This document shows positions 1 through 5,822 of a stretch of 10,481 nucleotides of DNA, in pieces. The notes beneath the pieces are model-generated. The model worked only from the letters and a program-made list of their open reading frames with translations, did not search any database and was not told the origin of the DNA. Source of the stretch: a virus (lineage: Duplodnaviria > Heunggongvirae > Uroviricota > Caudoviricetes); the IMG/VR virus record IMGVR_UViG_2690316224_000018. One strand, 5' to 3'. Numbering within the stretch: position 1 is the first letter of the stretch; each line of letters begins with the position of its first letter. The position numbers and the translations under genes are program-made.

Positions 1-584
1 ATCATCCACCCAACTTAACTGAAACCGGGATGAAGTATATGCATATAAAGTTCACTTTGCCAAACTTCAGTATAAAAAACCACATAAAAAATAGGGTGTG
101 ATAAAAAATACCGTAACAATAAAGCAAAGGATTATAAATTCCGTTACAGTTACAAATGATACTCAAGAAACAATTCCTTAGGAAAAACTTATTTACAGCC
201 AATAAGTAAGACACTTATATGATATCAAGTTTTCATAAAACATAACTAGGCTAAATAGCTGCGCCTAATACCGCTACACTTTTGCCAGCCCATGTTTGCC
301 TCCGGGTATTGACCCCTTCTCTACGCAACTTCAGTTCCCACCACCAACTTTGCGGCAGCTTTGTAGGATCAATGTCTAAAAGAATAATGGTGACCGATAA
401 GAAAACGACTGAATAACTGCAAATTTTCGCTCAAAACCTTCCTGTCAGATCCATAGCGAATCAAGTGCTGAATGTCACAGTATCGAACAGAAAACAGTGA
501 CGATCTAACCCTTCAAGAATATTCTACGATTGTTCTGTTTAGGAAAAGCAAGGCGGGAAGTCGGGAGATAAGTCATTGATAAAG

Positions 585-646
585 TGGCGGAGAGAGGGGG
601 ATTTGAACCCCCGGTAGAGTTGCCCCTACTCCGGTTTTCGAGACCG
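585..646 (-). tRNA. Truncated tRNA-Ser (CGA-anticodon type) 3' segment, ~62 nt from anticodon stem to CCA; probable prophage att core (attR-type junction)
   Basis: Minus-strand reading 646->585 gives CGGTCTCGAAAACCGGAGTAGGGGCAACTCTACCGGGGGTTCAAATCCCCCTCTCTCCGCCA: anticodon loop CTCGAAA, a long variable arm typical of Ser tRNAs, T-arm GGGGG-TTCAAAT-CCCCC, acceptor 3' strand and CCA. The sequence 5' of it on the minus strand (647-675) has no GGAGAGA acceptor strand or D-arm, so the tRNA is incomplete. Assignment to an enterobacterial serU-like tRNA is from memory, not a search. Confidence 0.6.
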
Positions 647-723
647 ATGATACAGAGTCGAAAAATCAAAGAGTTAAAAATTTTTCTTGGAATAAATGTC
701 TTAAAATCGTACACGAAAAATCA

Positions 724-891
724 ATGAATTACATAACATTAAAGAAGAATATTCCAAGCCTTCTTGAGGCTACTACCTGTTTTCAGGTGTCATTCAGACG
801 TGATTTGCCCCAGATTGGGAAAGCACGCTTTTTTCTCAGCTATCGTCCTCTTATTTTGCCGTTACATTTCTTTTTGCACTCTAATGATTAA
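724..891 (+). CDS. Hypothetical small ORF (55 aa, MNYITLKKNIPSLLEATTCFQVSFRRDLPQIGKARFFLSYRPLILPLHFFLHSND); possibly a gene remnant
   Basis: Hand-translated ATG(724)..TAA(889-891); below the size cutoff of the supplied ORF track. No clear Shine-Dalgarno upstream (ACACGAAAAATCA-ATG). Sits in the AT-rich cargo region, opposite in orientation to the tail genes. Confidence 0.15.
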   Translation: MNYITLKKNIPSLLEATTCFQVSFRRDLPQIGKARFFLSYRPLILPLHFFLHSND

Positions 892-1138
892 TTTACAATA
901 ATAATATCGGTAATTATTGAGTAATAATAAATTGATTATTGCAAATGTAATTTAATTCCATCTTCGCGTTATATTCCAATCTTTAATCTCCGCATGGAAC
1001 AAGTTGCATGCGTGACTATATTAAGACAACTTATAACCACCAAAACATTTGCTTTGCAAACAAAAACAGTGACCATTGACTCTAAGAAAATTCCGATCTA
1101 TTGTTAGGGTCATCAAAGTTACTTAACAGTATTCCGAA

Positions 1139-1240
1139 ATGAAAATGCAAAGCAAGCTAATTGTCTTATTAAACATTATCATTGCATTTATATTATTTGA
1201 GCTTTTAGCTCAAAAATTTGGTTTGAGCACATTATTTTAA
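1139..1240 (+). CDS. Hypothetical small hydrophobic peptide (33 aa, MKMQSKLIVLLNIIIAFILFELLAQKFGLSTLF), probably one transmembrane helix
   Basis: Hand-translated ATG(1139)..TAA(1238-1240). Possible sigma70-like promoter upstream: TTGACT (1076-1081), 17-nt spacer, TATTGT (1099-1104). Strong plus-strand terminator ~150 bp downstream. Weak or absent Shine-Dalgarno; AT-rich context makes chance ORFs likely. Confidence 0.2.
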   Translation: MKMQSKLIVLLNIIIAFILFELLAQKFGLSTLF

Positions 1241-1389
1241 AGCAAGATAAACAATATCGGGCACTCTAGTTTTTATAATTAACAATTAAACGTCCATAAA
1301 ATGTTATTTACTTTTGTTCGCTATTGTCATATCTTAATATAGTGGCTTACGCCACTCTACTTTCATCATATTTTGTACGTTTATGTACT

Positions 1390-1419
1390 CGCCATGAAGC
1401 TCTTTCATGGCGATTTTTT
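1390..1419 (+). terminator. Rho-independent terminator, plus strand
   Basis: 9-bp perfect stem CGCCATGAA (1390-1398) / TTCATGGCG (1404-1412), 5-nt loop GCTCT, followed by A-TTTTTT (1413-1419). On the minus strand the stem is not followed by a T-run, so it is unidirectional (plus). Confidence 0.5.
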
Positions 1420-1505
1420 ATTCTTAATCCAAGAACATACTCCCTATCTATAGCAAAATCACTTTTTGAACAAAAGAATAACGTATTTAGGTAATCATTA
1501 CGAAT

Positions 1506-2087
1506 TTACCCTATAGGTGCTACTGGCCATTCAATATCCTGTGCAGTTGACGTATCAACACGGTTCAGCAATACCCGATACTTTTTCCATGCTTCCAGCA
1601 ACGAGATTTCTTCCTCCGTTGCGATCTCCAGATCTACAGCATCCTGAAGTGGCGCTATATGCTCACTGGCTACCTGCATCAGGCTGTTTTTTGTTTCTTC
1701 CGCCTCCCGGATCCGGAACAGTTTTTCTGCTTCCGTATCCTTCACCCAGGCTGTGCCGTTCCACTTCTGATATTCCCCTTCCGGCGATAACCAGGTGACA
1801 TTTTCCGGTAACGAGCCAAGTTCAGAAATAAATAACGCGTCGCCGGAAGCCACGTCATAGACGGTTTTTCCCCGATGATCTTCAACGAGATGCCACGATG
1901 CCTCATCACTGTTGAAAACAGCCACAAAGCCAGCCGGAATATCTGGCGGTGCAATATCGGTACTGTTTGCTGGCAGACCTGTATGAGGCGGAATATATGC
2001 GTCACCTTCACCAATAAATTCATTAGTTCCGGCCAGCAGATTATAAATTTTTATGGTCCGTGGTTGTTCACTCATTCTGAATGCCAT
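1506..2087 (-). CDS. tfa: Tail fiber assembly protein Tfa (193 aa), chaperone for the side tail fiber
   Basis: Translation begins [54 protein letters not shown]..., recognised as lambda Tfa / Rac TfaR family. Start ATG overlaps the stf stop as TAATG (shared A at 2087), implying translational coupling. Confidence 0.9.
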
Positions 2088-5000
2088 TATGCAAGCCTCA
2101 CAATATAGTTAAATGCGATGTTTTTGACGGTGTTTTCCGCGTTACCAGCAGCGTTAACGGTGATGGTGTGTCCATGTGAACCAATCGCAACGGAGTGCGT
2201 ATGAGCACCAATACCGACAGTATGCGCGTGTGCACCTGCAGATGCTGCTGTGCCGGACAGTGAGTGGCTATGATTACCATCTGTACTGGTATTAGCTAAC
2301 CACCCCGTAGACATACCTACTGAGCCTTGTACACCCCAGGTATTTTGACCTGAGCTTGTATAACCATATTGATAAGTATCTTTAAAAACACTGGGGTTAA
2401 ATCGACGGCCATCTCTATGGCTGTGATTACCAGCTGCATTCGTGCTGCCACTTAAACTATGGGTATGCGCACCAGTGTTATTCGTGGATTTAGTGCCGTA
2501 ATCAAACGACGATGTGGTTTTCGTCCCCAAATCCGTACTGGATGCGCTGGCGCTGTGGGTATGCGATTTAATGCCATCCTGTTCCTGAGACAATACGGCA
2601 CGACCACTGGCGGGCTTGCCCTTAATCGTCCAGCCACGCATATCAGGGATCACGCCTGACGGATAAGCGGCTGCAAGTTTCGGGTAAGCAGATTTGTCAA
2701 AAGTCTGCCCCTGCATCAGGGCATAACCAGACGGAACGGTATCTGATGGCCACGGGATTGGTGCACCGACTGGATAAAACTCTGCAGGAGGATGAGCCGA
2801 GGTGTAAAGCTGCGCCCACGGCGACCAGTTTGCGTCGGTCGTATCCCGTCGTGAACGAATAAATGCCGGAGCATGAGCACCACTTGTACCACTCCAGCCG
2901 ATGAGTAACTCACCTTCGCCAACGGCTGTCATCCCTTTCAGGTGAATGATATTTCCATACGCTGTTGGATATCCGTTGTTATACACCTCGTATAACTCAA
3001 GACCTGCTGCCCCCTGCGTATTGTCTGTCAGCGCGGCTACCCGACCTTTTGAAGCCAGATTAACTGATGATACTGCTGTTCCACCTGACGGTAGCGCCCC
3101 GATCTCTGATGCCGTTGGCTTATTTCTGGAGTTATAGTCCCTTCGCCAGCCAGGTGAATAATCTGTTCCGTGATTAATATAGGTAAACTGGGCGTTGGTT
3201 GTTCCGCCACCGCTGGATGTGGTCGGAGTGGTAATGCGGATCGTCATCGCTGACTTTATCCCCATTACTTCAATGACAGCTCCGGCGAGATGAATATTAC
3301 CGCAGCCAGTATCAGTAATGATTTTATTATTGCCATAAGACCAGGAACCCTTGCACATCCAGTATGGATGGTTAAATGCTCCCTGAGAATCCAGCCACTC
3401 GATAAACTGTGCAGTCGTCCAGTTTCCTGTTGTTGTGCTTACTGACCCACCGAAGGCACGGCAGGCACCAATATTTTTCGTAAAGGTGTCTTTGCCAGGG
3501 ATATCCGCACCGTTCTGATCTTTCTGCAGACGTTTCTCAGCATTGTCATTGGCTGCTTTTACTGCCTTTGGCGTTGCCGCCAGCGTTTCAGACGTGCTGT
3601 TGGTCGCGCTGCTTAGCTGGATTATCCCTTTCTGTGCTGTCGTTGCATCCTGTGCGGTGTATTTCCCGTTAGCCAGGTCATACGCGGCCTTAACGGCTTT
3701 TGGCGTTGCCGCCAGTGACTCGGAAGTGCTGTTGGTCGCACTGCTGAGCTGTACTATCCCCTTTTTCGTCGTGCTCGCATCCTCAAGCGCCACGGCGGAT
3801 GCAATATCCTCTGCCCGTTTTGCCGCTGTCTCAGCGCGCGTTGCCGCGGATTCCGCCGTACTTTTGCTCTGAGCTGCTGCCGTCGCACTGCCAGCTGCCT
3901 CTGTCGCCTTCGTGGATGCCGTCGTGGCGCTACCCTTCGCTGCTGACGCCTGTCTGGTCGCCTCATCTTTTGAAGCAGACGCAGATGATGCCGATGACGA
4001 CGCCGAACTGGCTGACGATGCGGCAGCCGTTTTTGAGGATTCTGCGCTGGTTTCCGACGCTTTCGCGTTCGTCTCGGATGTCTTCGCTGCGGAAGCAGAC
4101 CTCGCTGCTGCGCTGGCCTGTACAGCGGCTTCGCCAGCCTTCGTTGTGGCTGTTGAAGCGGACGATGCAGCACTTTCTGCCGATTTTCCGGCGGCGGTGG
4201 CACTGGCTGAGGCCTGCCCGGCACTTGTTGACGCGGCACTGGCAGACGACGCAGCCGCTGTTTTTGAGCCTGCCGCAGCTGAGGCACTCTGTCCCGCTGC
4301 CGTTTCAGAAGCCTTGGCGTTCGTCTCGGACGTTTTTGCCGCCTTCGCAGAATTTGCTGTCGCCGTTGCCGAGGAAGCTGCGCTGCTGGCGCTCGAGGCT
4401 GCGCTCGTTTCTGATGATTTTGCCGCCTCTTTTGAAGCCGACGCATCCCGGGCTGAGGTGGCAGCTTCTGACGCTTTCGTGGTCGCGGTGGATGCTGAAG
4501 TGGCTGCTGATTGTTGTGACGCTGCCGCATTCGTTTCTGACGTTTTTGCCGCAGCGGCACTGGTGGCCGCCGCGCTTTTTGAGGACTCTGCAGCGGCAGC
4601 ACTTTTTGATGCTTCAGTGGCCTTTGCTGATGCCGTTCCTGCGCTGGAAGACGCTGACTGAGCCGACGAAGCGGCCTGTCCGGCTGACGTGCTGGCTGCG
4701 CGTGCTGAGCCTGCAGCATCAGTCGCATGGGTTGCCGCCTCACGGGCAGATGTGCCGGCATCGCCGGCTGACTTCTTCGCGGCTGCCGTGTTCTGTGCCA
4801 CTGCGGACGCGTTACGCGCCACCTCTTCCACCATCAGTTCAAAACGGCGCAGTGCCTCTGGCCGGACATCATCCTCCGTCATTGCACCGAGGAAATCATT
4901 CAGTGTGCCCGGCTTTGAGTCCTCATATACGGTGATAATCCCGGCGTGTGACGGCGGGAATCCCTCCACCAACAGACTGACGCTGTACTGACCATACTCG

Positions 5001-5222: not shown

Positions 5223-5822
5223 TCAGAATTTATAACCGACACCAACGATGAAACTGTTGGTACGCCAGTCACCGCTGCCGGAGCCTTCATAAGCGACGTC
5301 AACGGCCACGGATTCGGTCGGGTTAAACTGCACGCCAGCTCCCCACGCCAGAGACGTGTTGCTGTGGCGACCGTCATCACTTCCGGTCAGCACATCGTGC
5401 GTTTTCCCCTTGTTGTCAGTTACGCGGATATAATCCCCGGAGAAAGTCGACACACGGCTGTAAGCCATACCCGCCATCGCATACGCGCTGAACCATTCAT
5501 TCACGCGCACAGACGGCCCCGCCATCACGCTGAACCAGCGATTACGCACGGAATCCTCATGCCAGCGGGTATCGCTGTAATGCGTTTTTTGCTCATCTTC
5601 AGCGTTGGCATAACTGAATGACGTAATCAGCCCCAGCGTGTCCGTAAACTCATAACGGTATTTCACGTTAATCCCGTTCAGATTTTCGCTGCCGGGAGCG
5701 TTCGTACGGGCATGAAGATACCCTGCGCTCAGTGTGGCCTGCTGCTCAGACGCCCATGCAGGCGCACCGGATACGGCCAGACAGATGGCTGCGGACAAAA
5801 TGGCTGCACAAACTTTACGCAT
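5223..5822 (-). CDS. lom: Lom outer-membrane protein (Ail/Lom/PagC family 8-strand beta-barrel), 199 aa with signal peptide
   Basis: MRKVCAAILSAAICLAVSGAPAWASE...LSAGYLHARTNAPGS...NLNGINVKYRYEFTDTLG...SDTRWHEDSVRNRWFSVMAGPSVRVNEWFSAYAMAG...VGVGYKF matches lambda Lom closely; terminal F is typical of outer-membrane barrels. SD GAGAGG 5 nt upstream of ATG (5822). Confidence 0.9.
   Translation of the reverse strand: MRKVCAAILSAAICLAVSGAPAWASEQQATLSAGYLHARTNAPGSENLNGINVKYRYEFTDTLGLITSFSYANAEDEQKTHYSDTRWHEDSVRNRWFSVMAGPSVRVNEWFSAYAMAGMAYSRVSTFSGDYIRVTDNKGKTHDVLTGSDDGRHSNTSLAWGAGVQFNPTESVAVDVAYEGSGSGDWRTNSFIVGVGYKF

Follow-up and report, generated by a model that had tools for sequence, protein, structure and literature searches.

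We analysed a 10,481-nucleotide (nt) stretch of DNA from a tailed virus (IMG/VR virus record IMGVR_UViG_2690316224_000018), referred to here as the window, and in particular its positions 647-1505, the slot between a fragment of the Escherichia coli transfer RNA (tRNA) gene serU and the tail fibre assembly gene tfa. The slot is made up of a putative attachment-site arm (module A), a linker, and a second module (module B, 928-1505) that adjoins the 3' end of tfa and carries an unannotated small gene of the YncL family, followed by a terminator within a conserved RNA-like element. The guanine-plus-cytosine (GC) content in 300-nt windows was 36.7, 34.0, 29.3, 29.0, and 30.0% across 601-1500, dropping from 36.7% at 601-900 to 29-30% over 901-1500, compared with 46-63% in the tail genes from 1501 on. 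A first-pass annotation of this DNA had described the slot as AT-rich relative to the tail operon, free of any long open reading frame (ORF), occupied by three short plus-strand ORFs antiparallel to the tail genes, and equipped with a strong plus-strand terminator. We recovered each of these features: the slot has 29-37% GC against 46-63%, there is no long ORF in 647-1505, the ORF table lists plus-strand frames at 724-891 (55 amino acids, aa), 994-1107 (37 aa), and 1139-1240 (33 aa), and the terminator was found at 1389-1419.

Profile searches revealed that the product of ORF 1139-1240 matches the NCBIfam family YncL (NF000537) over profile positions 1-28 of 30, with an E-value of 2.8e-5 and a score of 23.9 bits. 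The peptide aligned with YncL of E. coli K-12 without gaps at 11 identities in 31 positions, including S5, K/R6, N12, A16, L19-F20, and K/R26-F-G28, and this alignment outscored 20,000 of 20,000 composition-preserving shuffles. Its hydrophobic core (residues 8-22) has a mean Kyte-Doolittle hydropathy of 2.82, compared with 2.41 for YncL, and the peptide shows the features of the family, namely a length of about 30 aa, one predicted transmembrane helix, and the conserved polar and aromatic positions. The remaining frames in the slot had no match in Pfam, NCBIfam, PHROGs, or PADLOC. Among 15 billion predicted proteins, the peptide turned up just twice and bore no name; when 1.8 billion representatives were searched exhaustively with HMMER, only two sequences were likewise returned, its own cluster and a frameshifted copy, and a literature search for the peptide string gave no match.

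The frame was intact in 56 of 57 sampled loci, the exception being a truncated contig, and these loci carried five peptide variants; residue 3 is Met in the window and Ile in most relatives. Nei-Gojobori comparison with the variant of 78% nucleotide identity (locus L006) gave 12 synonymous and 7 non-synonymous differences, with a ratio of non-synonymous to synonymous substitution rates (dN/dS) of 0.07 (binomial p<1e-4). The variant of 94% identity differed at 4 synonymous sites and 1 non-synonymous site, dN/dS ranged from 0.05 to 0.07 overall, and insertions and deletions start straight after the stop codon. Because the ORF combines homology to YncL with a frame that stays intact across variants and a dN/dS of 0.05-0.07, comparison of the variants demonstrates a real gene, which is predicted to encode a membrane peptide.

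In the mosaic of these genomes, module B is a discrete block that adjoins the 3' end of tfa, and the unit in it is unannotated in every record inspected. Its left homology edge recurs at position 928 (25 loci) or 960 (6 loci), and on the right the homology reaches into tfa to at least position 1648 in nearly all loci that carry the module, except for some short loci and remnants (for instance L014, L076, and the Escherichia albertii type). The module was found in a remnant that resembles Qin and sits at ydfJ (L005), in a prophage next to sitABCD (L006, 78% identity), in serU prophages (L009 and L010), and in free phages (L001, L002, and L011), and a prophage of strain 602687 adjoining paoD is 99.9% identical to the window over 1-2773. 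Conversely, L004, L007, and L008 share the attachment arm with other cargo and lack module B, so that among close relatives the module is present or absent at the same position, as is usual for a moron (cargo) unit. In enteropathogenic E. coli (EPEC) E2348/69, ydfJ is uninterrupted and the end of PP6 is without module B.

Searches of complete genomes revealed the core of the module (1076-1420, at least 80% coverage) in 816 of 5,426 E. coli genomes (approximately 15%), with all copies on the chromosome and up to four per genome; the ST131-type strain KBN10P04869 is one of the natural carriers. None of the 40 matches listed had any annotation under the core, and in a scan of one genome per species, E. 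albertii was the sole match outside E. coli that shares homology with the window. The first-pass annotation had judged the slot nearly empty or decayed; this was not borne out, since one gene in the slot is subject to strong purifying selection and can be found in about 15% of complete E. coli genomes. We likewise regard it as very improbable that the DNA is mere spacer in which chance ORFs arose in AT-rich sequence and the terminator was left behind by a lost cargo gene. Such a view would fit the missing annotation in the records inspected, the two of three ORFs that look like chance, and the AT-rich and mosaic nature of the region, but it leaves unexplained the purifying selection on ORF 1139-1240, its homology to YncL, and the maintenance of the whole unit at 95-99% identity in the 816 genomes and in several prophage contexts.

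Upstream of the gene lies a predicted sigma-70 promoter whose TTGACT is unchanged in 36 of 37 E. coli variants and whose -10 element retains TAT.GT in the 78% variant. Farther upstream, an island at approximately 955-1035 is conserved even in the 78% variant. Its predicted RNA structure was ordinary on both strands (z=-0.3 and 0.0) and no convincing promoter was found in it; its role is possibly regulatory. In L006, the 78% variant of module B has tfa fragments on both sides (4892-4991 and 5596-5754), a hint that the tfa end may have been duplicated or rearranged around the moron.

Downstream of the gene, structure prediction revealed that the 96 nt at 1330-1425 fold at -27.1 kcal/mol, compared with -10.5 +/- 2.4 kcal/mol for shuffled sequences (z=-6.9). 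The first-pass annotation had proposed that the terminator implies a plus-strand small protein or small RNA (sRNA), which proved a good guess: a YncL-family gene precedes it, and it lies inside a conserved RNA-like element. Positions 1389-1419 are certainly the terminator of the moron, and it acts on the plus strand only because the minus strand lacks a run of T behind the hairpin. Compared with the 78% variant, identity was 81% in the promoter and leader, 79% in the ORF, 64% in the spacer 1241-1335, 95% in 1336-1416, and 67% beyond. By these alignments, the terminator element is the most conserved part of the unit, and it has outlived the ORF in E. albertii, where a remnant between uspF and ttcA has kept the element while the ORF lost its ATG, gained a stop codon, and lost 10 nt. 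The tract at 1357-1372 varies only by a T/C polymorphism at 1369 and by one change in E. albertii. Across ten distinct variants, 96% of cells were paired, compared with 25-50% in slid controls, and five one-sided compatible changes were observed, with substitutions sitting in loops or yielding wobble pairs.

This conservation can be read in more than one way. It is possible, though not the reading we favour, that block 1336-1416 has no RNA role beyond termination and is conserved as a recombination joint between mosaic phage modules. Locus L020 agrees with L019 on the left side of the block but with L006 on its right side, which places a crossover in or beside it, and the block shows no compensatory base-pair change, belongs to no Rfam family, and has a sequence that we did not find in the literature. 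However, the observed changes spare the stems or keep pairing (C-G to U-G, A-U to G-U, and G-C to G-U), loop changes occur in three lineages, and the block survives without flanking homology in the decayed E. albertii remnant; a joint would account for the sharing, but not for variable loops with constant stems.

Another explanation gives function to the RNA element alone, as a trans-acting sRNA or as a terminator or insulator protecting tfa against antisense transcription, with the ORF being incidental or a leader. The contrast between 95% identity in 1336-1416 and 79% in the ORF of the L006 variant points this way, as do the lack of a Shine-Dalgarno sequence before ORF 1139-1240 and the state of the E. 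albertii locus, where the decayed ORF is still followed by the hairpins, the tract CUCUACUUUCAUCAUA, and the terminator, which have changed in loops or wobble pairs only. We nevertheless consider this explanation unlikely, as an untranslated sequence would hardly be expected to show a dN/dS of 0.05-0.07 and to keep its frame intact in every full-length E. coli variant, and the ORF has significant homology to YncL, a protein that has been detected experimentally.

Positions 1341-1419 may constitute an sRNA of approximately 80 nt or an RNA derived from a 3' untranslated region (3'UTR). Like sRNAs of the Hfq type, the element ends in a terminator with a U-tail after a conserved unpaired tract; compensatory changes and a match to a described RNA family were both lacking. 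A possible second promoter in front of it keeps a TTTAC and TAnnnT skeleton in all variants, including E. albertii, while neighbouring positions vary; with 8 of 12 consensus matches it falls under the scan threshold and was read from the alignments. No Rfam 15 family reached its gathering score within 647-1505, and searches of the literature with the DNA and RNA strings of the element found nothing. A MicC-like match at 1313-1427 reached 24.6 bits, where the gathering score is 90 (E=0.63); we took it as a chance match that mirrors the hairpin-plus-terminator shape. Identity with the prophage sRNA PasB was rejected, as PasB of EPEC PP6 is located between gpJ and the gene for the tail assembly protein, and the Northern probe for PasB matches nowhere in the window at up to 3 mismatches. 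A 2026 preprint reports that the flanks of PasB are rich in matches to the sRNA family IS009. The window has an Rfam IS009 match at 1546-1744 (minus strand, 222 bits), which was dismissed as a feature of the slot because it lies wholly inside the tfa coding sequence, on the sense strand, and is thus a tfa match. The IS009 family looks like a conserved piece of tail-fibre-assembly genes, and this overlap may explain the enrichment of IS009 near prophage sRNAs reported in the preprint. The features of the region are summarized in Table 1.

Table 1. Features of the slot at 647-1505 and of its flanks (window coordinates)
Feature	Position	Strand	Basis or remark
Distal yodB-serU intergenic spacer, captured E. 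coli chromosomal DNA inside phage sequence	308-583		K-12 alignment
3' 63 nt of serU tRNA-Ser(CGA), fossil attR junction	584-646	-	K-12 alignment
Module A, att-proximal prophage arm	647-841		96-99% identity at ends of otherwise different prophages
ORF, 55 aa, probably spurious	724-891	+	Labelled hypothetical in ev099
Linker, 86 bp	842-927		Present only in window-type and L009-type arrangements
Left part of module B	928-1075		Includes conserved island, overlaps ORF 994-1107
Sigma-70 promoter-like site	1076-1104	+	TTGACT-17-TATTGT; predicted start near 1111, 28 nt ahead of ORF
Unannotated gene, predicted YncL-family single-pass membrane peptide, 33 aa	1139-1240	+	Sequence MKMQSKLIVLLNIIIAFILFELLAQKFGLSTLF
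Possible second promoter	1307-1335	+	TTTACT-17-TATCTT; would start RNA at ~1342, first base of hairpin 1
Conserved RNA-like element	1341-1419	+	Two hairpins, single-stranded tract, terminator
Hairpin 1	1341-1356	+	Fold
Single-stranded tract	1357-1374	+	CUCUACUUUCAUCAUA; fold
Small hairpin	1375-1388	+	Fold
Intrinsic terminator	Stem 1389-1413, TTTTTT 1414-1419	+	11 pairs (5 G-C), 3-nt loop
tfa, tail fibre assembly gene	1506-2087	-	Pfam Caudo_TAP, E=5.9e-44; right-hand anchor of the moron
Tail fibre gene, 1023 aa	2087-5158	-	ORF table

Module A is non-coding and recurs at the chromosome-proximal ends of prophages L008 (at serU) and L007 (at uspF), to which it is 96-99% identical. It contains an 18-nt direct repeat (659-676 and 714-731, 55 nt apart) and is probably the Int/IHF-binding arm of a serU-type attP, with the repeats as putative arm-type integrase sites. 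What follows the module differs between prophages: L008 has a sensor diguanylate cyclase gene before the tail-fibre genes, L007 has three DUF1076/NleG-like effector genes, and in SerU-LTIIb the tail-fibre genes come almost directly after it. The proposal made from the sequence at the outset, that this position is a cargo site, is thus supported, in that related prophages with a common attachment arm carry a diguanylate cyclase, NleG-like genes, or almost nothing there. No feature was found in the linker 842-927.

Three frames other than that of the YncL-like gene were examined as candidate genes in the slot. ORF 724-891 straddles module A and the linker, its homology in other prophages stops inside it at 762 or 841, and it had no family match in NCBIfam, Pfam, PHROG, or PADLOC; it is probably not a gene. 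ORF 994-1107, which is annotated in phage PhiR70_1, was rejected, as its ATG is missing or internal stops occur in the other sequence classes of module B and it has no family match. ORF 1324-1494 was rejected because it reads through the terminator.

Alignment with E. coli K-12 MG1655 revealed that window positions 308-646 run collinear with two adjoining stretches of the chromosome, the yodB-serU spacer and the 3' portion of serU (the latter identical up to 646), and that the switch from chromosomal to phage sequence falls at 646/647, where K-12 goes on with the tRNA. The spacer portion (308-583) is collinear and near-identical both with K-12 and with true serU-integrated prophage loci. A displaced 63-nt 3' piece of serU thus stands directly against phage DNA, as at an attR; ARAGORN found no complete tRNA at this core. 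The first-pass annotation had placed an att core here. The serU junction at 646/647 is real, but it is neither a live site nor a prophage end in the present genome, in which the host-derived part is confined to 308-646. In the true serU lysogens L009 and L010, the chromosome (zinT, yodB) follows to the left, whereas left of approximately 307 the window departs from the chromosome and matches only the phages mEp332, ev099, and PhiR70_1 and the prophage of strain 602687. Because window positions 1-306 run on as free-phage DNA rather than chromosome, the junction, as read from these alignments, is the fossil of an older serU lysogen. The fossil consists of 339 bp of host DNA (308-646) and the old attachment arm, and it lies within a genome packaged in the virions of mEp332, ev099, and PhiR70_1.

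The probable crossover core lies at approximately 629-646, in the anticodon stem-loop. Prophage L007, which is located at the uspF side of a Rac-type site in an O26:H11 strain, shares module A plus the final 18 nt of the serU fragment (629-646) with the window (L007:4980-5194 matches 629-841), which suggests that integrases of this family use these 18 nt as their core at two or more sites on the chromosome. In mEp332, ev099, and PhiR70_1, the sequence continues leftward with a gene for an AraC-family regulator and then with insertion sequence (IS) fragments; in ev099, int and xis lie farther out, past the IS fragments. The DNA beside the ev099 int holds CAACTTAGTATAAAAAAGC, which we take to be the lambda attP core. 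The live site of ev099 is the lambda attP, approximately 1.75 kb to the left of window position 1.

The window begins 1 base upstream of the ATG of the 247-aa AraC-family regulator (L003:2698-3441), which belongs to the phage b-region. The best matches of this protein were YdeO (E=3e-43, far under the equivalog cutoff) and GadX, followed by HilD and Rns; judged by these matches, it is related to regulators of acid resistance and virulence, but is carried by a phage. Its gene has a strong promoter-like site at 63 to 34 on the minus strand (TTGGCA-18-TATACT, 10 of 12 consensus positions). In strain 602687, a piece resembling the 3' end of a tRNA (GGTGCCGATAATAGGAGTCGAACCTACGACC) was seen at L003:2100-2200, between a yagP-like LysR fragment and an IS fragment, and recalls the thrW/ptwF site at the end of CP4-6. 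The end of this prophage is rearranged, because its homology to the free phages ends within the IS fragment.

On the other side of the slot, the tail fibre gene has a long, repetitive tract rich in Ala, Ser, and Thr at window positions 3500-5000, where the GC content is 59-63%, the AT skew is strongly negative, long spurious ORFs occur in other frames, and identity to relatives is 88-94%, compared with 98-99% in the flanks. The tail genes I and J in the window are separated by just 15 nt.

We conclude, with a probability of roughly 0.66, that the region is a composite of a fossil serU attachment arm (647-841 together with 308-646) and a self-contained plus-strand moron at approximately 1076-1419. 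The moron would comprise a sigma-70-like promoter, the 33-codon YncL-family gene, and a 3' region of about 150 nt with a hairpin, the tract, and the terminator. It has its own intrinsic terminator and a composition (29-30% GC) distinct from that of the tail genes (46-63%). In lysogens, transcription of the unit from the prophage is probable, and the terminator would stop the transcript before it ran antisense into tfa. The peptide probably inserts into the inner membrane and, by analogy with YncL, lowers the membrane potential, an effect from which the lysogen could gain stress tolerance, dormancy, or the ability to exclude superinfecting phages. The terminal 80 nt or so may accumulate as a trans-acting sRNA, through processing of the 3' end of the messenger RNA (mRNA) or from the weak promoter of its own.

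The analogy draws on work in E. coli K-12, where YncL is located in the inner membrane and is induced by heat shock, minimal medium, or stationary phase (PMC12542507). Its production causes partial, sub-lethal depolarisation of the inner membrane, nucleoid condensation, a phage-shock response, and less protein synthesis, and its over-production lowers viability (PMC12542507). Among members of the family, only the K-12 protein is known to have these properties. In addition, yncL mRNA was found by RIL-seq (in which interacting RNAs are ligated and sequenced) as a partner of KilS, an sRNA of the Rac prophage (PMC8175672).

Several points weigh against the composite reading and lower the probability that we assign to it. 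The YncL score of 23.9 bits is below the curated cutoff of 35 bits for this equivalog model, and the peptide is therefore a paralogue, and no equivalog, whose function is not simply transferable; the proposed physiological role, whether depolarisation or exclusion, comes from analogy with YncL. No Shine-Dalgarno sequence is recognisable ahead of the ATG of ORF 1139-1240, and the promoter-like site at 1076-1104 matches just 9 of 12 consensus positions, with such sites being no commoner than in shuffled sequence. For the sRNA part, sequence diversity is low (five identity classes) and 0 pairs changed on both sides in the ten variants, and covariation therefore gives no proof of structure. The recombinant L020 implies that part of the conservation of the element could stem from recombination rather than selection.

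The depolarising activity of YncL also brings to mind a type I toxin-antitoxin system, in which the peptide would be a membrane toxin and a downstream or antisense RNA its antitoxin. In its small size, hydrophobicity, and basic N-terminus, the peptide is similar to type I toxins, and over-produced YncL both depolarises the membrane and reduces viability (PMC12542507). Against this, the predicted duplex between the tract and the ORF mRNA, at -8.9 kcal/mol, equals the shuffle mean of -8.9 kcal/mol, and 47% of shuffles were as good; the tract thus has no special complementarity to the ORF mRNA, which argues against a type I arrangement. The 78% variant does not conserve the sole promoter-like site on the antisense strand (1330 to 1301), PADLOC gave no match, and YncL has no known antitoxin. 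We regard this arrangement as extremely improbable.

Extending the composite reading, the unit might be a hitherto undescribed two-product moron, carried by about 15% of E. coli, that provides a YncL-like peptide tuning the membrane potential (for exclusion, abortive infection, or dormancy) and a trans-acting sRNA of about 80 nt regulating host mRNAs, the latter being able to persist on its own after the prophage and the peptide gene have decayed, as in E. albertii. We put this forward as a speculative proposal that is considerably more likely to be wrong in one of its parts than to be right in full.

The findings disclose an annotation blind spot, in that a conserved gene that 816 of 5,426 complete E. 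coli genomes carry, and sequenced free phages as well, was left uncalled in the records inspected. What is new is an unannotated protein of a known small-protein family, encoded in a setting that is classical for a moron, together with an sRNA candidate. The phage-borne copy of YncL suggests that temperate phages may exploit depolarisation of the YncL type, and mEp332, PhiR70_1, and ev099 are inducible and genetically tractable phages that could be used, in K-12 or C hosts, to probe such peptides. The RNA element is a concrete sRNA candidate outside the known Pas, Esr, and DicF sets. For the calling of prophage boundaries, the region illustrates that a tRNA fragment resembling an att site beside tail genes can be a fossil within a phage genome.

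In comparison with known systems, the peptide most closely resembles YncL (b4598), a stress-response protein of the inner membrane of E. coli K-12, with a similar length (33 versus 31 aa), one hydrophobic helix, and an ungapped alignment. The two genes differ in their setting, as K-12 yncL sits between patD and ortT whereas the phage gene lies beside tfa in prophages, in the Shine-Dalgarno sequence AGGTGG that yncL has and the phage gene does not, and in the terminator and 3' region, which are different in the phage gene.

The origin of the serU fossil resembles capture of the lambda bio type followed by module exchange. As in lambda bio phages, host DNA from the tail-fibre side of the prophage and a hybrid att junction lie inside a packaged phage genome. 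Here, by contrast, just 339 bp of non-coding host DNA are left, the present phages gained or kept another integration module (the lambda attP and int in ev099), and the event is ancestral and common to several phages.

The RNA-like element shares with PasA-D, Esr41, and KilS a length of about 80 nt, a 5' hairpin, a conserved single-stranded tract, and an intrinsic terminator with a U-tail, as well as an intergenic position near the tail genes of a lambdoid prophage and a range restricted to Escherichia. CpxQ and SroC are enterobacterial sRNAs of similar architecture that derive from 3'UTRs. The candidate element differs from these prophage and 3'UTR-derived sRNAs in matching no Rfam family and showing no covariation.

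Among lambdoid morons, lom and bor of lambda and gp15 of HK97, the last of which is reportedly a superinfection-exclusion moron, offer the nearest parallels to the unit as a whole. The product described here is far smaller, the gene is antiparallel to the late operon, a conserved RNA element is attached to it, and the unit is known from its sequence. In common with these morons, it is an extra unit with a promoter-like site, a terminator, and a different base composition, located among or after the tail genes, variably present, and encoding a small, predicted membrane protein.

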